A stretch of DNA of 64,000 bases from Escherichia phage EC150. Positions 24,243 to 40,090 of the stretch are shown here, piece after piece. Under the pieces are notes generated by a model. It did not search any database. It had not been told where the DNA came from and saw only the letters and a program-made list of their open reading frames with translations. The position numbers and the translations under genes were made by a program. The DNA lies in sequence record ON210137.1, one strand, 5' to 3'. Within the stretch, counting starts at the first letter, position 1, and each line of letters opens with the position of its first letter.

Positions 24243-25781
24243 GTGATCAGTCAATCTCGTTATATTAAAATTGTATCAGGGGTCGGAGCAGGCGCGGCTG
24301 TTGCAGTTCGCAAACTGTCGCTTCGCGTCATGACTTCTAATACAGTTCTGCCGCCGGGCATTGTAGCAGAATTTTCAACGGCTGATGCTGTTGGATCATA
24401 TTTCGGTTATTCTTCCGAAGAATATAAGCGCGCAGCATTATATTTTGGATTCATCAGCAAGCAAATTAACTCGCCTGATTCAATCAGCTTCTCGCGTATT
24501 GTTTCAACTGCGATTCCAGCAATGGTCATCGGTGATACTGAGCCTAAAGTGCTTGCTACGTTTCAAGCATTCACTGGCGCTATTTTAAGCATCACTTATG
24601 ATGGCACAGACTACCTGACTGACGCAATTAACCTTTCAGCGGCAACAAGTCTGGCGAATGTGGCTGAACTTCTGGAAACGGCAATCAATACTAAATTTGC
24701 AGCAGAAGGTGGCACGTCGGTGCCTGCACTTGCTGATGCAGAAGTGTATTGGAACGCTAATACTCAGCAGTTCACGCTGGAAGCAGCGCCGTCGACCGCT
24801 GGCGCAGGCAACCTGTCTATCAACGTCACAGGCCAACCGACCGACCCGTCTCAAGCATTGGGTTGGACCACCACTGGCACCGTAACCGTTGCAGGCCAGG
24901 GCGTTTCAAGTCCGGTAGAAGCAATCGCAGCATCTGTGGAAATCTCCAACAACTTCGGCTCATTCCTTTTTGCTGGGGCTGACCGAACTCTGGAAGAAAT
25001 TACCGCTGTGGCAGCGTGGAATCATTCGCAGAATAATATGTACATGTATTTATTCTCGACTTCGTTTGCTAATATCGGGTCATACTACACCGCTCTGAAA
25101 GGGTACTCAGGCGTTGGCATGATGATTCGCGCAACTAACCTTGCCAACGATTACATCGACCAAGCACCTGCTGAAATCCTCGCGGCAACAAACTATAATA
25201 CTGTGAATGCGACTCAAAACTACATGTATTATCAGTTTGATACTCGCAACGTGACTGTTTCAACTGACTCTCGCGCAGATACTGCTGATCAAAACCGTGC
25301 GAACTACATCGGCGCTACTCAGCAGGCCGGACAAACCTTGGCATTCTTCCAGCGCGGCGTATTGATGGGCGGGTCAACAGCAGCAGTTGATATGAACACT
25401 TATGCCAACGAAATGTGGCTCAAGTCTGCTATTACATCTCAGCTGTTCAGCATGTTCTTGAATCTTGGTCGCGTCCCTGCTAACGAAGAAGGGAAAGCGA
25501 CTGTGCAAGCCATGATTCAGGTTGCTGTGGATAACGCAAAAGTGAACGGCACCATCTCTGTTGGCAAGGCGCTGACTGAGATTCAGAAACAATACATCAC
25601 GCAAACTTCCGGTGACAACACTGCTTGGCGGCAGGTTGAAACTATCGGTTACTGGCTGACTGTAGATTTTGATACTGAAACCACTTCCGATGGGCGCACC
25701 GAATACTATGCAACATACACGCTAATCTACTCTAAAGATGATGCTGTGCGTCGCGTTGAAGGTCGTGACGTTCTTATCTAA
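24243..25781 (+). CDS. tail sheath protein (putative)
   Basis: 512 aa ORF followed by a small tube-like gene; AAGAGGA Shine-Dalgarno; GTG start. Confidence 0.6.
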   Translation: MISQSRYIKIVSGVGAGAAVAVRKLSLRVMTSNTVLPPGIVAEFSTADAVGSYFGYSSEEYKRAALYFGFISKQINSPDSISFSRIVSTAIPAMVIGDTEPKVLATFQAFTGAILSITYDGTDYLTDAINLSAATSLANVAELLETAINTKFAAEGGTSVPALADAEVYWNANTQQFTLEAAPSTAGAGNLSINVTGQPTDPSQALGWTTTGTVTVAGQGVSSPVEAIAASVEISNNFGSFLFAGADRTLEEITAVAAWNHSQNNMYMYLFSTSFANIGSYYTALKGYSGVGMMIRATNLANDYIDQAPAEILAATNYNTVNATQNYMYYQFDTRNVTVSTDSRADTADQNRANYIGATQQAGQTLAFFQRGVLMGGSTAAVDMNTYANEMWLKSAITSQLFSMFLNLGRVPANEEGKATVQAMIQVAVDNAKVNGTISVGKALTEIQKQYITQTSGDNTAWRQVETIGYWLTVDFDTETTSDGRTEYYATYTLIYSKDDAVRRVEGRDVLI

Positions 25782-25828: not shown

Positions 25829-26296
25829 ATGATTAACGTTTCCGGTTTTGGCGCTTCGATTCGTTTAGTGGCATCAAACACTTTTCCAAATGGTGTAACC
25901 CTTTCTGATTTCGCAGATGATGCTGATCCGATTGACGCGCCTGATCTTCAAATCTCTGAAGCCGCAATGGGGCTTAACGGTGACCTGGTAGTCTGGAACC
26001 GTGCCAACCCTCTTGAAGTAGGCGTCAACATCATCCCTACTTCTGAAAGCGATGTAAACTTAGATGTTCTGGCAGCGGCTAACCGTGTAGGCAAGCGCAA
26101 GAACTCTGCGAAAGACGTGATCACCCTTATTCTGACCTACCCTTCTGGCATGGTCATTACACTGAACAAGGGCACTTTGACGACTGGTTCAGTAATTCCT
26201 GGCATCCAGTCTCAGGGTCGTGTAAAAACACGTCAATATCGCTTTAAGTTTGAGAACGTAGTCAAAACTGGCGTGAGCAACCAAGAGATTTTATAA
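25829..26296 (+). CDS. tail tube protein (putative), paralog A
   Basis: 155 aa directly after sheath; N-terminus MINVSGFGASIRLVA closely matches CDS 27247..27744. Confidence 0.55.
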   Translation: MINVSGFGASIRLVASNTFPNGVTLSDFADDADPIDAPDLQISEAAMGLNGDLVVWNRANPLEVGVNIIPTSESDVNLDVLAAANRVGKRKNSAKDVITLILTYPSGMVITLNKGTLTTGSVIPGIQSQGRVKTRQYRFKFENVVKTGVSNQEIL

Positions 26297-27246: not shown

Positions 27247-27744
27247 ATGGTCAATATTAGTGGATTTGGCACAAGCATTAGAATTGTCGCTCTCCAATCT
27301 TTTCCTGTTGGGCTGAATATCAGTTCTTTGTCTGATGACCAGGATTCGCTAATTATTGAGGAAGTTGAATCAGTAGGCTATCAACTTACTTATGACGGCG
27401 GCATTTGTATTTATGACAAGGCCGCCGTCGTTCGCGTATCCATTGCGGTGATCCCAAACACTGAAGATGACATAAACCTAAAGCTTTTGCTTTCCGCTCG
27501 TAAAGGCGGATTCAAGTGGCTTCCTATACAGGATGTCACGTCAATGCTTATTACATATCCTGATGGCGGCAGAGTAGCATTTTCGAACGGGACCATAATC
27601 AGCGGTCCGCTTGGCGACTCCATTGAGCAATCCGGTCGTCGCAAGACAAACAGATATACATTCGTGTTTGCCAGCTACGGCGGCGCACAGAGCACATCGC
27701 AAATTGCAAAAGGCGTGGTGCAGAGCATATTGGGGTCAATTTAA
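27247..27744 (+). CDS. tail tube-like protein, paralog B (putative tube initiator)
   Basis: 165 aa; N-terminus MVNISGFGTSIRIVA and overall pattern parallel CDS 25829..26296. Confidence 0.5.
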   Translation: MVNISGFGTSIRIVALQSFPVGLNISSLSDDQDSLIIEEVESVGYQLTYDGGICIYDKAAVVRVSIAVIPNTEDDINLKLLLSARKGGFKWLPIQDVTSMLITYPDGGRVAFSNGTIISGPLGDSIEQSGRRKTNRYTFVFASYGGAQSTSQIAKGVVQSILGSI

Positions 27745-28277
27745 TGGCTATCGATTTATTGTCATATAGTCTTTCAAACAGAAGCTTCAAAATAAGAAGC
27801 TTCAACCTTGGGGAAGTGTCAACGCTTGGTTGGGCTATTGTTAACGTAAAAATAAGACTCCAAGCAAAGATATTCAAAAACCAAAGGGAAGACGGAAGCT
27901 ATATCGTCGATGGCAGAGTCAAAATGCCTAGAATATTGACTGTGACTGTAATAGCACAGACAAAAAGCGCGTCCGACGCAATCGCAAAGATGTTGCAGAA
28001 CAGGTCCACGATATACACAATAAATTCTCGTGGGCTAATCTTTGAACGTATGGTACTGCAAAATAACAATTTCAGCCAAGATGCTGACAATATAACCTCA
28101 CAACCCATACAACTAGTCTTCCATGAGATATTAACACAGCAGGATGTGTCTATTCAAACAGCGCAAGCAGCCGACTCAACTGTCATTGAGCGCGGCATCG
28201 CTTACATAAAAGAGACTACTGCCAGCGTCACTGGCGTTGCAACAAAGGTGATGAATGGCATCAAGGGGATGTTCTGA
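27744..28277 (+). CDS. hypothetical tail protein (177 aa)
   Basis: ORF track; start/stop overlap. Confidence 0.45.
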   Translation: MAIDLLSYSLSNRSFKIRSFNLGEVSTLGWAIVNVKIRLQAKIFKNQREDGSYIVDGRVKMPRILTVTVIAQTKSASDAIAKMLQNRSTIYTINSRGLIFERMVLQNNNFSQDADNITSQPIQLVFHEILTQQDVSIQTAQAADSTVIERGIAYIKETTASVTGVATKVMNGIKGMF

Positions 28278-28837
28278 TGGACTTTGTTTCGATTCTGCTT
28301 TCTGGTCAATCTCTGACCATAACGAATGAGTCGACAGGGCTTCCTGTCTGGACAAGGCTTTCTCCAGTGTCTGCAGAAATAACATCACCAGCAGAAACTA
28401 CTCAATTTCCACTTGCTGGAACGGCGATGCAGGTGGTGGAAGTATCAAGCACATCCTCAGTAAGCAATTTACAGGCGGCAAAAGTAATAATGCCAGCGCA
28501 CATGGCGCTAAACGTAATTTGCAACGACCAATCGACTATTGAAAACATAATTAATACATTCGACAATGATGAAGTCACATTTTCAATAGCTTCTCGAAGC
28601 ATAATTGCAAGTAAAATGTCGATGTCTGATGTCGAAATAACTCAGTCAGAAGAAAACCTGAATGGAGTCTCAATTGTAATAACATTTGAACAGACGTCAT
28701 TTAGTATTCAAGGAAGCTTTGACCCTAAACAGTCCGCAGATGAATCGTCAAATGGCGTGGCTATTAAAGAGCCAGTCAGTTTGACTACAACTGTGAGTTC
28801 GTTATATAATAAAATAAAATCAACAGTAGGAATATAA
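28277..28837 (+). CDS. hypothetical tail protein (186 aa)
   Basis: ORF track; start/stop overlap. Confidence 0.45.
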   Translation: MDFVSILLSGQSLTITNESTGLPVWTRLSPVSAEITSPAETTQFPLAGTAMQVVEVSSTSSVSNLQAAKVIMPAHMALNVICNDQSTIENIINTFDNDEVTFSIASRSIIASKMSMSDVEITQSEENLNGVSIVITFEQTSFSIQGSFDPKQSADESSNGVAIKEPVSLTTTVSSLYNKIKSTVGI

Positions 28838-28838
28838 A

Positions 28839-29255
28839 ATGAAGATCACCAATAAACAAACTGGTCGTAAAGTAGAAATTAAAATCAGCAAAATGACTGC
28901 GATGGAAGGTTGGAACATACAGCGCCGATTTATCGAATTTGCAATGTCAAAAGACCCTGCATTCCGTTCAGAATACACAATGGAAGTATTAAGCTTTGCA
29001 AAGGTTGAACTTGATGTCGGGCAAGAAATTCCGCTGAGCACTGGCGCACTTATTGACAACCATCTTGGCGACTGGGAAAACTTGAAATTGGTTTTCGAAG
29101 CGGTGTTGATGGAAAACGGAATCAACCCAGAGACTCACGCTGAACGTGAAGGATACTGGGAACAAGCTGGCGGCGAAATGGCTGCAGCATTTATTGGCGA
29201 ATCGATGCGATTAATCGCGCCATTCCTCAGCGGCGAGACTCCAAACAAGGGGTAA
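28839..29255 (+). CDS. tail assembly chaperone (putative)
   Basis: Small acidic protein immediately upstream of tape measure gene. Confidence 0.4.
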   Translation: MKITNKQTGRKVEIKISKMTAMEGWNIQRRFIEFAMSKDPAFRSEYTMEVLSFAKVELDVGQEIPLSTGALIDNHLGDWENLKLVFEAVLMENGINPETHAEREGYWEQAGGEMAAAFIGESMRLIAPFLSGETPNKG

Positions 29256-29258
29256 ACT

Positions 29259-31439
29259 GTGTCTGACTCATTAGAAAAATTTGTTCTTCAATATACGGTG
29301 GACTTGAAAGAGTCCATCAATCGTCTTGAGCAATTGCAAGATAAGGTTGATCGGTTGATCAGACAAATAAAGGCCGCTGGTAAGGACTTCACCGGAGCAT
29401 TCAAAGATGTGTTTGGTGAGCTGAAGCCTCTCACAGCTGAACTGGGGTCCATTGACGGAATCCTTGCGCGGCTTACTTATCGCTTTGCCGCGCTCGTTCC
29501 TGTTGTCGCAGGATTGGCTGTCGTAGTCAAATCCATTGTTGATGTTCGAAAAGAATACGAAGCGCAAAGGAAGCTGGGTTTTGAAGCAGGACTTTCACCA
29601 ATTGGCGTGGAGCAACTACAGCGACAATTGAATGAGAGTTCAGGCGGAGTTCTTGGTGCGCAAGGGTCAAGGGATTTGATCAGCAAGGCTTCTAATCTCG
29701 CATTCAACGCATACACCAACCCAGATGTTATGAACAAGGACAACTTGTTACTTAACAAGATGGGAACCAGTCCTTTCAACAGTAACGGCGGCATCAAAGA
29801 CACAAACCGGCTGCTTGATGAAATTGGCACAAAGCTGAGAAGTGTGAATGAGCAAACCGCTCGTGCTATTGGTGCTCTGGCAGGTTTTACCGCTGATGAA
29901 GTCCGTGCGCTTCGTGAGCGAAATCAATCAGTCAAAGAAAGCACCCGTATAAGCGACGAAGAAACCGCGAAGCTGCAAAGACAGCAGGTCGCACTTGAAA
30001 CGATACGAAACAGCATGGGCCAAATTCAAGAAGACTGGCGACGCATTGAACTGGTAATCGGCGAGAACGTGATGCCGGCATTCTCGACGCTTGTCAGCAA
30101 GACTGCCGATACAGTCGAAGGATTCCAGATGATGTTTCAAAGAATGTCTGATGGATGGTCTGAATTTGTCGACAATTTCATCGCTGACTTGAAACACCCG
30201 TTTGATAAACAGGCGGCTGTCAACGAGCGCCACGAGCGTGCCGTTGATAGATGGATCACTCAGATGGCTGACGGCGATGTGAAACGCCAGAGGAGTCAGG
30301 AGCAAAACGCGGCTGAACAACGTTCTGCGCAAGCACTTTTCACTCGCGATATAAACCTGTTTTCAAGCGCCGTTTCAACCTTTGCTGGTGTTATTGATGA
30401 GCGACAAGCGTGGGCTGCATGGGCTGGTGAGATAGGACGAAGCGCAGGCCAATCCGCAATGCCTGGCACGCCAGCACTAAGCACTGGTGCGACCGTAGGC
30501 AACAACTTGGGGTCAGGAAATCCGACTGCATATGACTCAATCTATGAGGAAGCCTCCAAGCGTTATGGAATCCCTGTTGCGATGATGAAGGCCGTCACAG
30601 AAGTCGAATCTGGATTCAACCCTAATGCCGTAAGCGGAGCAGGCGCGACCGGACTGATGCAAATAATGCCTTCCAACTTCAAGGGACTTGGTATCACAGA
30701 CGGTAATGACCCAAGACAAAACATTATGGGCGGCGCTCAACTTCTCAAGGAATATTTAACTGCTGCCAATGGCGATTGGAATCTTGCACTGACTATGTAT
30801 CACGGCGGATATGACCGCAGCGGATGGGGAAAGAACACCCGTGCATACCCTGGCAAGGTGATGGCCGCTCTCGAACGACAGGCGAATGGAGAATACGCCA
30901 CGGGAGCGCCGCAAGGTGCACCAGTTACTCCAGTGCTTAGCGGTAGCGGAGTAGAAGCGTCAAAAGGCAGCTACGCTCCAGTACAGGGCCAATCCCGCCA
31001 AACGGTGCAATACAGACAGTTGCAAGAAGCCATTGCAGGATACCTAAACGTGCCAGTTGAGCAGCTGATGCAAGGACAAGTCAACAAAGGTGATATTGAC
31101 TTTGCTCAAACTTACCTTAAACTTGGAACGCAAAGGGATTATATTAAAAACATGCAGCTGGCTTCAACTCCAGGTGTAAGGCCGAACATTCAGGCCGAAG
31201 CCATGAAGAATGCTCGTCTCGCGGCATTCCAGCTTGAAGCATTCCAGAAATACGGCGGCGACCTTTCCGCGAATAGTCGACCTGGTGGGCGTGATATTAC
31301 TATGGGTCAGAAAAACGTTGTCATCAACGTCAACGGCGCTCAAGACCCAAGAAGCACGGCGATTGAGACTAAGCGTGTGCTTGAACAAGATGATATAAAC
31401 GACATAAACAACCTTACTGCTACACCTTTGAAGTGGTGA
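29259..31439 (+). CDS. tail tape measure protein with C-terminal lytic transglycosylase (SLT) domain
   Basis: Coiled-coil N-terminal part with hydrophobic segment; SLT motifs TEVESGFNPNAVS and GLMQIMP; GTG start with AAGGGG Shine-Dalgarno. Confidence 0.7.
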   Translation: MSDSLEKFVLQYTVDLKESINRLEQLQDKVDRLIRQIKAAGKDFTGAFKDVFGELKPLTAELGSIDGILARLTYRFAALVPVVAGLAVVVKSIVDVRKEYEAQRKLGFEAGLSPIGVEQLQRQLNESSGGVLGAQGSRDLISKASNLAFNAYTNPDVMNKDNLLLNKMGTSPFNSNGGIKDTNRLLDEIGTKLRSVNEQTARAIGALAGFTADEVRALRERNQSVKESTRISDEETAKLQRQQVALETIRNSMGQIQEDWRRIELVIGENVMPAFSTLVSKTADTVEGFQMMFQRMSDGWSEFVDNFIADLKHPFDKQAAVNERHERAVDRWITQMADGDVKRQRSQEQNAAEQRSAQALFTRDINLFSSAVSTFAGVIDERQAWAAWAGEIGRSAGQSAMPGTPALSTGATVGNNLGSGNPTAYDSIYEEASKRYGIPVAMMKAVTEVESGFNPNAVSGAGATGLMQIMPSNFKGLGITDGNDPRQNIMGGAQLLKEYLTAANGDWNLALTMYHGGYDRSGWGKNTRAYPGKVMAALERQANGEYATGAPQGAPVTPVLSGSGVEASKGSYAPVQGQSRQTVQYRQLQEAIAGYLNVPVEQLMQGQVNKGDIDFAQTYLKLGTQRDYIKNMQLASTPGVRPNIQAEAMKNARLAAFQLEAFQKYGGDLSANSRPGGRDITMGQKNVVINVNGAQDPRSTAIETKRVLEQDDINDINNLTATPLKW

Positions 31440-31443
31440 TAAT

Positions 31444-32316
31444 TTGAAAAAGAGAATCCTTAAGGTCACCTTATCTATGCCGGATGGCACAAGCCAAGTT
31501 CTTGATGAAGGATTGATGCTCAGATGCCGAATCAAAAAGGCAGCACTTTCCGTTCAGAATAAGGCCACGATTGAAGTCGCAGGATTAACAGGGTACTTGA
31601 GAGAGTACCTGCTTTCCAACTTCACGGCATTCAACAAACGTCTGCGTGATCAAGGTCAGTTGGCGGCGAACTACGTTAATGTGACTATTGAAGCTGGATA
31701 CAGAGAAGGGAGCGTAATCAGCAGCAACTTGGTATACAAGGGACAGGTGACTACGGTGGAGATAACAGCGCCGCCGCCGAATATCGTCATCAGAATCACG
31801 TGTTATACAAACCAAATAAACAGAACGAAGTTCATAACTCAAGCCGCGCCATCCAACCCGACTTTCAAAGAGTTTGTGGAATGGTCTGCAAAGCAAATGG
31901 ACATTGATACTGTTATTTGCGACACGTCGATTAACAATCAGCGCCTTGTAAACCCAGGAAGAACGACATATGTTGCTGCTGCGCTGCTGCTTGAGATCCA
32001 GAACTATCAACGCAACTCCATCGCGGCATACATTGATGACGATACGTTAATTGTTAAGGATAAAGACAAAATTCTAAATCCAGACCAGATTACGGTCATT
32101 GAGGAATTTGTCGGAATACCGATGTGGAACGAGTGGGGTGCAGACTTCACTTGTATGTATAACGCAGATTTGAAGCTTGCACAAGGTGTTAAATTCAAAT
32201 CAGTCTTAAACCCAAGCTTGAACGACACCACATTTGTCATCATGCAACTTGAATATGATTTAGCGAGTCGTGATGACATATTTACGGTGACGGGCGGCGT
32301 TGCACCATCGGCATAA
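31444..32316 (+). CDS. baseplate protein (putative)
   Basis: ORF track (TTG start; in-frame ATG 31477 is an alternative); position after tape measure. Confidence 0.4.
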   Translation: MKKRILKVTLSMPDGTSQVLDEGLMLRCRIKKAALSVQNKATIEVAGLTGYLREYLLSNFTAFNKRLRDQGQLAANYVNVTIEAGYREGSVISSNLVYKGQVTTVEITAPPPNIVIRITCYTNQINRTKFITQAAPSNPTFKEFVEWSAKQMDIDTVICDTSINNQRLVNPGRTTYVAAALLLEIQNYQRNSIAAYIDDDTLIVKDKDKILNPDQITVIEEFVGIPMWNEWGADFTCMYNADLKLAQGVKFKSVLNPSLNDTTFVIMQLEYDLASRDDIFTVTGGVAPSA

Positions 32317-32318
32317 AT

Positions 32319-32840
32319 ATGAGAAAGAATAAAATAATCGACTTGTTTGGCGTAACTTATGAAATTCATCAATTCAGCGCAATAGATGCATTTGAAATGG
32401 TCGATGACATAAGTATATTAACCCCACTTGAATTATTGAGTGAATGTTATGTAATAAAATACGACGGGTCCAAAGTAAGGCTTAATTCTGAAAAAGTAAT
32501 TAGTGAAGAAGTGAAAAGTATTCCTAATCACTTGCCGCCTAATCTTGTGTTGAAAGTGTTAATGGAAGCCGTTAAAAAGCACAACTTTGGATTCCTTAGC
32601 GATTGGAAAAGCACCAAAATTCCAAATAGATTCTTGGCGGATGCACCGACAGTAGAGCCTAATTATCTTGAGCCAATGGTTGCAAGTCTAATAAATAACG
32701 GCCTTGCATCTTTAAAGGAGTTGGAAGAATACTATTCACTGCGTGATGCATTTGCTATGTTTGATGGTTTAATAGCAAAATCACTTAATGAAGCCTACTC
32801 AAACGAAGCTGCCATTAAAGAATCAAAGTCAAATCGCTAA
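32319..32840 (+). CDS. hypothetical baseplate-region protein (173 aa)
   Basis: ORF track. Confidence 0.45.
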   Translation: MRKNKIIDLFGVTYEIHQFSAIDAFEMVDDISILTPLELLSECYVIKYDGSKVRLNSEKVISEEVKSIPNHLPPNLVLKVLMEAVKKHNFGFLSDWKSTKIPNRFLADAPTVEPNYLEPMVASLINNGLASLKELEEYYSLRDAFAMFDGLIAKSLNEAYSNEAAIKESKSNR

Positions 32841-32898
32841 AATATTGCTTATAGACTCCTTATAGATTATAATTTGTTGATCAGATATAAGGAGTCTA

Positions 32899-33626
32899 TG
32901 ATGGCAGAAAAGTTAACCCAACTTACAAGCCCCAACCAAACTGACAAATCAAGTATGTTTGCCGCGCTTCAGGGAATGCTGGACCGTGGCAAGTATACCA
33001 CTGATGGCATGATTCCTGCGCAAGTAATATCTTATGACCGCAAGAAAAATTTAGCAGTCATAAAACCTGTTATTCATTTCGTAAGTCTTGATGATAAGCC
33101 AGTGGAGCGTCAACCTTTGGTGTCAATTCCGGTACTGGCAATCGGCGGCGGCGGATTCGTGATCAACTTCCCTTTGAAGGAAGGCGACTTGGGCTGGATA
33201 TTCGCTGGCGACCGCGAGTTGTCGACATTCCTTGAAGAATTGAAGCCGGCCGCGCCTACCAATGGCCGTGTAAAAACTTTCGCTGATGGACTGTTCATAC
33301 CGGATGTATTCCGAAAATACACCATAAGCGGAGAGGATGCAGGGTCAATGGTAATTCAATCCCTCAGCGGCGCTGTGAGAATTGCACTAAGCGATGACTC
33401 AATAAACATAATTGCGTCTGCTGGAGTAAACGTCAAGACCCCGATAACCACTATCGATCAACAATTGATAGTAAATGGAAAGGCAACATTCAATGGTGGG
33501 ATAGAAGGCAAAGAAGGAACGACGGCAACGCTTCCGACTGGCACAACGGTCGGTGGCATTGATGTATCCACTCACGGGCATATCGGTAACGGGCCTGGAA
33601 ACAGAACTGGGAATATGATAGAATGA
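32899..33626 (+). CDS. baseplate spike/hub protein (gpV-like, putative)
   Basis: AAGGAG Shine-Dalgarno before ATG 32899; position before baseplate J-like gene; Gly-rich beta-type sequence. Confidence 0.4.
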
Positions 33627-39445: not shown

Positions 39446-40090
39446 ATGATTAATGCAAACGTAATATCTAAAGGGACCGGATGCAGCATGGATGTTGCAG
39501 AGAAATGGGTGGACCCTTTCAAGCAGGCTTGTGAGCACTACGGAATCAAAAGCAAGAATGCCATCGCGGCATTCCTTGCAAACGTAGGAGTAGAGACGGG
39601 CAGCTTGAAGACCTTTGTGGAAAATCTCAACTACTCTGCTCAAGGTCTTGCCAATACATGGCCTAGTCGTTACAGCGTCAGCGGTCGCTCTGGAAGTGCC
39701 CCGAACTCATTGGCCCTGTCGATTGCCCGTAAACCTGTGGAAATCGCCAATAATACATATGCAAACCGCATGGGCAACGGTTCAGTAGCATCTGGCGACG
39801 GTTGGAAGTACCGTGGCCGTGGTGCCATTCAGCTGACTGGAAAGGCCAACTATGCGGAATATACGCGTCAATCAGGCTATGATGCATTGAACAATCCTGA
39901 TATTCTGACTGAACCAAAATACATTGCTGACAGCGCGGCATGGTTCTTTAAGAATAGCGGCTGTATTCCTCTTGCGGATGCAGGAAATTTTGATTCAACC
40001 GTTAAGCGGATTAACGGGGCCGCGCCGAACGCAGCAAACCACGGTGAGTTGCGAAGAAAGCGTTACAAAGATGCACTAGCAGTTATGTAA
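39446..40090 (+). CDS. endolysin, glycoside hydrolase family 19-like
   Basis: Motifs AAFLANVGVETGSL and YRGRGAIQLTGKANY match GH19 chitinase/lysozyme catalytic region; last gene of late operon. Confidence 0.8.
   Translation: MINANVISKGTGCSMDVAEKWVDPFKQACEHYGIKSKNAIAAFLANVGVETGSLKTFVENLNYSAQGLANTWPSRYSVSGRSGSAPNSLALSIARKPVEIANNTYANRMGNGSVASGDGWKYRGRGAIQLTGKANYAEYTRQSGYDALNNPDILTEPKYIADSAAWFFKNSGCIPLADAGNFDSTVKRINGAAPNAANHGELRRKRYKDALAVM

Follow-up and report, generated by a model that had tools for sequence, protein, structure and literature searches.

A protein of 726 residues, encoded in the tail module of Escherichia phage EC150, goes by different names in related phages. RefSeq and relatives' records label its 2181-nt gene 'lytic tail protein' or 'soluble lytic murein transglycosylase', while other GenBank entries have 'endolysin', 'internal (core) protein' or 'hypothetical protein'. 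Which of these names, if any, tells what the protein does? We considered the question in a window of 64,000 nucleotides (record ON210137.1), that is, the whole stretch of DNA analysed, which belongs to a Wifcevirus-type myophage of E. coli: Ro157lw, FEC19, WFH and ECML-117 are 95–98% identical to it at the nucleotide level. The gene product is very probably the tail tape measure protein (TMP) of this contractile-tailed phage, and it carries a lytic transglycosylase domain. An earlier, sequence-only reading had proposed as much and was correct in essence. The arrangement, real but ordinary, has already been described in Pseudomonas phage relatives.

The gene extends from 29259 to 31439 (+ strand, as for all coordinates given here) and comprises a GTG start, 726 codons and a stop, exactly as that reading had placed it. 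A Shine–Dalgarno sequence, AAGGGG (29247..29252), can be read directly 6 nt 5′ of the GTG. This start is backed by the conservation of M1, F8 and Y12 at the N-terminus in an alignment of 30 homologues, as well as by the Ro157lw protein, 98.3% identical in amino acids with a coverage of 100%. Among the matches listed, all 25 Wifcevirus records have a gene of 2181 nt, despite identity down to 88%. ORFs on the opposite strand within the gene, of at most 134 aa, were treated as spurious. The 79-kDa protein was found by mass spectrometry, with 30 peptides in preparations of vB_Eco4M-7 and 24 in those of ECML-117 (PMC7048862); because these samples also held non-structural proteins, its association with the virion is not proven thereby.

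The identification starts from a homologue whose place in the tail has been seen. Four collinear stretches, spanning the whole protein, match gp41 of phage Pa193 (PDB 9B45 chain a, E = 6e-72), identified by cryo-EM as the TMP, with its C-terminus built into tail-lumen density (PDB 9B45). Residues 840–858 of gp41 are the only ones resolved, forming a trimeric plug on the tail tip protein gp44; the authors of that structure place a putative transglycosylase domain at residues 491–582. Collinearity also makes the protein a member of the Pbunavirus/Wifcevirus 'lytic tail protein' family (PHROG 2013): its residues 1–626 match positions 1–656 of the 657 in the profile, with E = 1.8e-137. Pa193 gp41 and its orthologues in PB1, E217, 14-1, LBL3 and JG024 are true homologues with the same domain order. 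The conserved N-terminus, a hydrophobic segment, a helical body, the motif QAWAAWAGEIG, the transglycosylase domain (SLT) and a C-terminal module that finishes with lysine and an aromatic residue are common to gp41-type proteins and to ours. The Pbunavirus orthologues occupy the same slot 5′ of the hub gene, and their hub, tail tip and tube partners are conserved. By contrast, identity with gp41 is only about 29%, the hosts differ (P. aeruginosa versus E. coli), and the chain is 132 aa shorter (726 versus 858), mostly in the linkers that flank SLT and in the body before the motif.

Dedicated profiles say less. The Pfam TMP families give no match to the protein at E ≤ 1, TIGR01760 (tape_meas_TP901) stays below threshold (21.5 bits for a cut-off of 28.8, residues 143–290), and the PHROG TMP families 2276, 12506 and 8125 match weakly (E 1e-4 to 1e-5). 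No curated TMP profile being reached, the identity of the protein rests on synteny and on a homologue whose location is known from structure. It is on such grounds – collinearity with Pa193 gp41, and homologues of tube, hub and tail tip on its flanks – that the TMP proposal is borne out. The AF2 model of the whole chain is poor (pLDDT 66, pTM 0.36) and was relied on only for SLT and for the proportions of secondary structure; DSSP finds in it 67% helix over the whole chain and 76% in residues 1–397, with moderate confidence outside SLT. The chain is long and mainly α-helical, as befits a TMP.

Synteny is that of the Pbunavirus structures: sheath, tube, baseplate-tube/ripcord paralogues, a small ORF, TMP, hub, a small ORF, tail tip. 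The tail sheath protein is encoded at 24243..25781 (Pfam DUF3383, E = 2.3e-120; 'tail sheath' in the WFH annotation), and the tail tube protein at 25829..26296 (Pfam E217_Gp32, E = 2.8e-60; Pa193 gp33 tail tube, E = 1.9e-48). On the other side comes the baseplate/tail hub (31444..32316; Pfam E217_GP41, E = 1.4e-118; PDB 8EON/9B45 hub, E = 9.3e-86), the partner bound by the TMP C-terminus in Pa193. The tail tip or spike gene lies at 32874..33626 (PDB 9B45 gp44 tail tip, E = 3.9e-54); in Pa193, tail tip and TMP C-terminus make a six-helix bundle together. This is the slot of a TMP gene, in a tail module with tube/chaperone genes on one side and the baseplate hub on the other, and the module holds no second long helical ORF that could act as a ruler.

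The ORF of 138 residues directly 5′ of the TMP gene (28839..29255) belongs to PHROG 4627, to which no function is assigned, and its position makes it a candidate tail assembly chaperone. It has no match in Pfam or NCBIfam, and its positional counterpart in Pa193, gp40, is absent from the built virion proteins. An upstream chaperone pair, produced by programmed −1 frameshift, is common, not universal, for tape measure genes. Such a pair was not found here: there is no in-phase slippery heptamer, and a frameshift in it is impossible because both alternative frames downstream are closed by many stops. A tRNA scan of the window found none.

The lytic transglycosylase domain, of the SLT, GH23 type, covers residues 421–545 (30519..30893), with support from Pfam, AF2 and Foldseek. 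Pfam SLT (PF01464) matches residues 430–529 far beyond chance, with 85.1 bits for a cut-off of 21.3 (E = 3.5e-24). The sequence-only reading had recognized the domain from two motifs, TEVESGFNPNAVS at residues 447–459 (30597–30635) and GLMQIMP at 465–471 (30651–30671). Motifs and domain are real, as profile and fold attest, yet the location given to the domain, at the C-terminus, has to be revised: it is internal, at 58–75% of the chain, with some 180 residues after it. Its modelled structure (mean pLDDT of 80–93 in blocks of 10 residues, residues 421–540) finds its best Foldseek matches in Slt70, Slt, MltE, MltF, MltC and MltD, with a probability of 1.00 for Slt70, MltE, MltF, MltC and MltD, and has the lysozyme-like α-helical fold. 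The motifs of family 1 are all present (E450-S451, G465-L-M-Q468 and M513-Y-H-G-G517), with E450, S451, G465, Q468 and Y514 each conserved in at least 90% of the 30 homologues. The predicted catalytic glutamate is E450 (codon 30606..30608), which aligns with the ES motif of MltC and is kept together with S451 in 28 of the 30 family members, the two others carrying a different module. The earlier proposal of a catalytic glutamate in TEVES was right as to the place and ambiguous as to the residue: the conserved E-S pair designates the second glutamate, E450, rather than E448. Slt70, MltC, MltE, MltF and MltD share with the domain the catalytic fold and the E-S, GLMQ and Y-x-G-G motifs; here, by contrast, it is embedded in a ruler and lacks a signal peptide, a lipobox and the accessory domains, superhelical or LysM, that the bacterial enzymes have.

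Around the enzyme, the chain is made of a conserved N-terminus, a hydrophobic segment, a helical body that closes with the near-invariant QAWAAWAGEIG motif, a linker rich in glycine and proline, then SLT, a second linker and a C-terminal module of 146 aa. The helical N-terminal ruler body, delineated by AF2 helices and the weak TMP profile matches, corresponds to residues 1–397 (29259..30449). It includes a transmembrane-like segment, FAALVPVVAGLAVVVKSIV (residues 76–94; 29484..29540), with a Kyte–Doolittle mean of 2.36 over its 19 residues; no other window of the protein is strongly hydrophobic, and this hydrophobicity is retained through the family alignment. The conserved C-terminal module (residues 580–726; 30996..31436), ending in LKW, aligns with residues 703–854 of Pa193 gp41. 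It is 145–155 aa long in all 30 homologues, most of which end with K-Y/W, and is the predicted tail-tip anchor.

A chain of 726 residues had seemed short for a tape measure, and the tail tube had been supposed to be short as well. The tails of the relatives, of 107–120 nm, contradict this expectation and resemble those of T4-type phages. WFC and WFH, whose genes match nt 1–2181 end to end, have tails of 110±4 nm and 111±2 nm, and the T4-like phages listed in the same table have tails of 102–110 nm. ECML-117, again with a gene matching nt 1–2181 end to end, has a tail of 120 nm, and vB_Eco4M-7, of the same phage group, one of 107 nm (PMC7048862). In the two genera, and for the few TEM and cryo-EM values at hand, chain length tracks tail length: Pa193 has 858 aa for a tail of 130 nm (34 tube rings), and Wifcevirus (WFC/WFH) 726 aa for 110–111 nm, that is about 1.5 Å per residue in both (726 aa × 1.5 Å = 109 nm). 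The 132 residues that separate the two proteins match the shorter tail, about 110 nm versus 130 nm. The unrelated TMP of P7-1 gives 1.40 Å per residue, so that the figure of 1.5 Å is only approximate.

Could the protein be, instead, an ejection or internal virion protein similar to T7 gp16, borne by the particle and cutting periplasmic peptidoglycan, with tail length not set by it? The 'internal (core) protein' label of some GenBank records would say so, and the SLT domain is 31–51% identical to those found in T7-like internal virion proteins and in PRD1-type transglycosylases, with a PDB match to T7 gp16, while curated TMP profiles all remain below threshold. We nevertheless consider this reading improbable. 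A core protein of the gp16 type has its SLT at the N-terminus and would show homology beyond it, whereas the T7-like similarity is restricted here to residues ~420–535; the remainder aligns collinearly with gp41 of Pa193, a protein seated by its C-terminus in the tail lumen, on the tail tip. Between tube-like genes and hub, the gene has the canonical position of a TMP gene, tail length tracks chain length in two genera, and no alternative long helical ORF offers itself as a ruler. Even further from the evidence stands the idea of an endolysin that would lyse the host when the cycle ends, to which we give hardly any credit, despite an 'endolysin' annotation in phage F13 (OP745617) and a 'host lysis' grouping in the vB_Eco4M-7 paper (PMC7048862). 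Small soluble endolysins are encoded with lysis genes; this protein has 726 residues, is a helical homologue of a structurally located TMP, which is not the architecture of an endolysin, and its gene sits in the tail module with no adjoining lysis cassette. Furthermore, the phage encodes a dedicated, GH19-like endolysin (39446..40090; Pfam Glyco_hydro_19, E = 1e-07; 'endolysin' in the WFH annotation), which also means that SLT is not its sole muralytic enzyme.

A different doubt bears on the TMP reading from within: SLT might be degenerate or purely structural, a spacer or an anchor that binds peptidoglycan, with no catalytic role in infection. In its favour, the domain has no counterpart in family members P0053, P0058 and P0054, so that the family can do without SLT chemistry. 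The module found in its place, however, has matches among PHROGs that bear the annotation endolysin or tail injection transglycosylase, an argument that a muralytic function is under selection at this position. The E-S pair, GLMQ and the tyrosine of MYHGG are kept in 28 of 30 homologues, at an overall identity as low as 27%. The JG024 paper (PMC3008698) states, second-hand, that the PB1-like homologues of phages 14-1 and LBL3 degrade peptidoglycan, as reportedly shown in the primary work on PB1-like phages (Ceyssens 2009). A structural role for SLT is, in consequence, given a very slim chance; for proteins of this kind, the usual inference is that they cut peptidoglycan at entry.

Other phages combine ruler, enzyme and tail in different ways. 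In T4, the ruler gp29 has no enzyme domain, and gp5 is a hub/spike protein rather than a ruler, its fold being that of a T4 lysozyme-like hydrolase and not of a lytic transglycosylase. This tail lysozyme is a functional analogue: carried by the virion at its tail tip, it has a muralytic activity that serves in penetration (PMC6116005). T5 Pb2 and the TMPs of TM4 and of S. aureus phiIPLA35 are rulers with a peptidoglycan-cleaving module, expelled into the envelope at infection; they belong, by contrast, to non-contractile tails, those of siphoviruses for Pb2 and the TM4 protein, and carry muralytic modules of other types or positions (PMC6116005). None of the three gave a sequence match beyond generic motifs in the searches made. 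T7 gp16 and T7-like internal virion proteins have a homologous SLT, delivered from the virion for entry and, in the T7-like phage proteins, 31–48% identical over about 100 aa. Unlike our protein, gp16 is a podovirus core protein, internal to the capsid, with an N-terminal SLT and no ruler function, and the rest of it is dissimilar.

A mechanism may be proposed. During assembly, several TMP copies would fill the lumen of the tail tube – the location shown for the homologue Pa193 gp41 – their C-terminus plugged on tail tip and hub, and would fix the length of the tube, about 110 nm, as the length correlation suggests. The SLT domain is probably stored extended or unfolded in the tube, adding to the measured length, because several folded copies side by side probably cannot fit a lumen of ~37 Å. 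What follows transposes the ejection model proposed for Pa193, T5 Pb2 and HK97. Upon sheath contraction the tip would be lost and the TMP would exit, C-terminus first, into the periplasm. There SLT would refold and cut MurNAc-GlcNAc bonds locally, leaving 1,6-anhydroMurNAc ends, and this cleavage would give the DNA conduit a passage through the wall. As for the channel in the inner membrane, it may then be formed or seeded by the hydrophobic segment and the C-terminal helical parts.

With reference to applications, the value of this assignment is mainly one of correct annotation, TMP having to replace the diverse labels, from transglycosylase to hypothetical protein, that many GenBank records give to the gene. 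Wifcevirus phages are biocontrol candidates for O157 E. coli, and identifying a virion protein with a predicted muralytic activity at entry, together with its residue E450, is practically useful; it opens no new question.

Finally, we must comment on the most conserved motif of the family, which lies outside the enzyme, in residues 366–397 (30354..30449), and contains NLFSSAVSTFAGVIDERQAWAAWAGEIGR. Mean identity to the residue of our protein reaches 72% there across the alignment, with A384, A386, A387, W388, A389, G390 and G393 invariant, and 29 of 30 sequences have it at exactly 31 aa. The motif surpasses the enzyme domain in conservation, and muralytic modules of different kinds have been swapped beside it. 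It is conceivable, as a speculation that we would not favour, that this motif is the real functional core of the TMP family, as an element of oligomerization, tube locking or membrane channel, and that the enzyme domain and the linkers, stored unfolded, count as ruler length. The latter part of the proposal stems from the fact that, in both genera, the value of about 1.5 Å per residue is obtained with the whole chain and not with its helical part only.

The reading frame on the plus strand at 29259-31439, which starts with GTG and encodes 726 amino acids ending in TATPLKW, is found in the ORF listing as the sequence-only reading had it. A ribosome-binding site, AAGGGG, precedes the GTG by 6 nt, and the ORF in front has its stop codon between the two. 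The gene aligns without gaps over its full 2181 nt, at 95-98% nucleotide identity, with its counterparts in Ro157lw, ECO71P1, FEC19, WFH, ECML-117 and other Wifcevirus phages, and at 88-90% with those of the WFC/Bas98-101 subgroup. Wifcevirus genomes measure 66-72 kb, most of which the window takes in; across positions 1-64000 ARAGORN finds no tRNA gene, as has also been published for WFC and WFH. RefSeq labels the gene 'lytic tail protein' in these relatives, and further records have 'soluble lytic murein transglycosylase', 'transglycosylase', 'internal (core) protein', 'endolysin' or 'hypothetical protein'.

That the product is a tail tape measure protein (TMP), as had been proposed, is borne out by a homologue located in a virion structure. 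Its sole strong match among PDB sequences is chain a of 9B45, the 858-residue gp41 'Tape measure protein' of the Pseudomonas phage Pa193 (E=6e-72). The match consists of four collinear stretches: the N-terminal body (residues 1-282), the segment preceding the enzyme (342-404), the transglycosylase domain (422-537) and the C-terminal module (574-722). Residues 840-858 of the Pa193 protein were modelled into tail-lumen density (PMC11456595), and by analogy the EC150 protein would occupy the same place. Genes for its partners accompany it in the window: tail tip (32874-33626; 9B45 gp44, E=3.9e-54), hub (31444-32316; E=9.3e-86), tail tube (25829-26296; Pa193 gp33, E=1.9e-48) and sheath (24243-25781; DUF3383). 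Wifcevirus and Pbunavirus are distant relatives according to the BASEL paper, where Wifcevirus structural genes were annotated using a Pbunavirus virion structure. No Pfam TMP family matches the protein, TIGR01760 stays below threshold (21.5 bits versus 28.8, residues 143-290) and PHROG TMP families match weakly; its identity therefore rests on the structurally located homologue and on synteny.

The two peptides that had suggested a soluble-lytic-transglycosylase-type (SLT) domain are present, TEVESGFNPNAVS at residues 447-459 (30597-30635) and GLMQIMP at residues 465-471 (30651-30671). They are not a chance resemblance, since the Pfam profile PF01464 matches residues 430-529 with 85.1 bits for a cut-off of 21.3 (E=3.5e-24). 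We aligned 30 homologues, 691-860 residues long and 26-75% identical to the EC150 protein, from metagenomes and from myophages of about 65-72 kb infecting Escherichia, Serratia, Pantoea, Pseudomonas, Luteibacter and Cupriavidus. Motif conservation identifies the catalytic residue as E450, the second glutamate of TEVES, paired with S451; at each of these two positions, and at G465, Q468 and Y514, conservation reaches at least 90%. An AlphaFold2 model of the whole chain is poor (pLDDT 66, pTM 0.36, 67% helical) but confident in the SLT domain, with means of 80-93 over 10-residue blocks, and the top Foldseek matches in the PDB are all lytic transglycosylases (Slt70, P. aeruginosa Slt, MltE, MltF, MltC and MltD, probability 1.00 each).

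The alignment also reveals how the chain is organized. The N-terminus is conserved (M1, F8, Y12, L23, L26). It is followed at residues 76-94 (29484-29540; Kyte-Doolittle mean 2.36) by the one strongly hydrophobic stretch of the chain, FAALVPVVAGLAVVVKSIV, which resembles a transmembrane segment; its hydrophobic character is kept across the family, and it could join in forming a membrane channel after ejection. A helical body then leads to the most conserved part of the family, the block NLFSSAVSTFAGVIDERQAWAAWAGEIGR at residues 366-397 (30354-30449). Mean identity is 72% in this block and 48% in the SLT domain; seven of the block's residues are invariant, and its length is fixed at 31 residues in all but one of the 30 homologues. 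Its small-xxx-small/Trp pattern suggests, from sequence, helix packing or membrane insertion. Two variable linkers, the first rich in Gly and Pro, then flank the SLT domain (residues 421-545), and a C-terminal module of 145-155 residues closes the chain, usually with K-Y/W at its end. Most of the length variation among homologues falls in both linkers and in the body ahead of the conserved block. The enzyme had been placed at the C-terminus, but it is internal: some 180 residues follow it, precisely those whose homologous segment in Pa193 extends to the tail tip.

The E-S pair is absent from only two of the aligned sequences, both devoid of an SLT domain. Three homologues without this domain (P0053, P0058 and P0054) carry another module in the same slot; PHROG 873 ('endolysin') matches it in all three, and PHROG 7182 ('tail injection transglycosylase') additionally in P0053 and P0054. 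The matches of these three proteins to the TMP family PHROG 2276 are far stronger than that of the EC150 protein. This points, at the level of sequence comparison, to muralytic modules being swapped at a fixed position of the ruler. A catalytically inert SLT domain is unlikely, given its conserved motifs and these alternative modules. It is also unlikely that the protein is an ejection protein like T7 gp16, devoid of ruler function, as its similarity to proteins of that kind is confined to the SLT domain. Nor is it likely to be the endolysin of the phage, as some labels would have it: the gene belongs to the tail module, and another gene, at 39446-40090, encodes a GH19 endolysin.

The tail had been expected to be short because the protein seemed small for a TMP. 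This fails against the tails measured in relatives, 107-120 nm. WFC and WFH, whose genes have the same length (nt 1-2181 aligned; 726 residues here), have tails of 110±4 and 111±2 nm, about 1.5 Å per residue; ECML-117, again with the same gene length (nt 1-2181 aligned), has a tail of 120 nm (about 1.65 Å), and vB_Eco4M-7, with a TMP of 79.0 kDa by mass spectrometry, one of 107 nm. In Pa193, 858 residues go with 130 nm and 34 tube rings, about 1.5 Å per residue, and in P7-1, whose TMP is unrelated, 784 residues go with about 110 nm (1.40 Å). The tails of T4-like phages, listed in one table with WFC and WFH, measure 102-110 nm. A chain of 726 residues would give 109 nm at 1.5 Å per residue, and scaling from Pa193 puts the expected number of tube rings in EC150 at about 29. 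As T4 gp29 is shorter (about 590 residues), and lambda gpH (853) and P2 gpT (about 815) slightly longer, 726 residues are ordinary for a TMP. The value of about 1.5 Å is reproduced in both genera by the total chain, not by its length without the enzyme, which hints that the enzyme adds to the length of the ruler. Several copies of a globular domain of about 125 residues probably cannot fit side by side in a lumen of about 37 Å.

The best-supported model is that of a lumen-filling ruler, ejected to cut peptidoglycan. During assembly several copies would fill the tube, their C-termini plugged onto tip and hub and their SLT domains probably unfolded, the chain setting the length. Once the sheath has contracted and the tip is lost, the protein would exit C-terminus first into the periplasm, where the SLT domain would fold and make local cuts in the glycan strands; an inner-membrane conduit may be formed with the help of the hydrophobic segment and the helical modules. 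The homology, the domain and its motifs, the synteny and the tail lengths are observed; from them we infer that the protein is a ruler, that it is stored unfolded, in what order it is ejected and that it forms a channel. The 14-1/LBL3 orthologue is said second-hand to degrade peptidoglycan (PMC3008698, citing Ceyssens 2009). Detection of the 79-kDa protein in vB_Eco4M-7 and ECML-117 preparations by mass spectrometry (54% and 40% sequence coverage), in samples that also contained non-structural proteins, is supportive.

TMPs with peptidoglycan-cleaving domains are textbook knowledge, witness T5 Pb2, TM4 and phiIPLA35 (PMC6116005), and phiKZ gp181 has been described as lysozyme-containing and a likely tape measure. 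The sequence-only reading of a TMP with a transglycosylase domain is thus correct in essence and already known, because the Pbunavirus homologue has been described, its transglycosylase domain noted there, and near-identical genes are named 'lytic tail protein' in GenBank/RefSeq. Two modest points are left over, the strong conservation of the 31-residue motif and the hint that the enzyme serves as ruler length.

Just upstream of the TMP gene, in the same reading frame and separated from it only by TAA and one codon, a 138-residue ORF (28839-29255) matches PHROG 4627 and neither Pfam nor NCBIfam. Its position makes it a candidate tail assembly chaperone. A -1/+1 frameshift extension of it is impossible, so that the usual G/GT-type pair is absent; for ORF 32319-32840, a chaperone PHROG matches weakly (E=1.2e-4). 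Between tube and TMP genes runs a series of tube-fold paralogues (27247-27744, 27744-28277, 28277-28837), to which PHROG and RefSeq wrongly give the label 'tail fiber protein'; the last two, adjacent, both match PHROG 2580, and the tube protein (25829-26296) also matches Pa193 baseplate tube gp37 and E217 ripcord gp36. The hub, read from TTG at 31444, aligns from its residue 1 with residue 1 of the E217 gp41 and Pa193 gp42 hubs, and the WFH RefSeq start, 33 nt (11 residues) further downstream (31444-31476 region), probably makes that protein too short.
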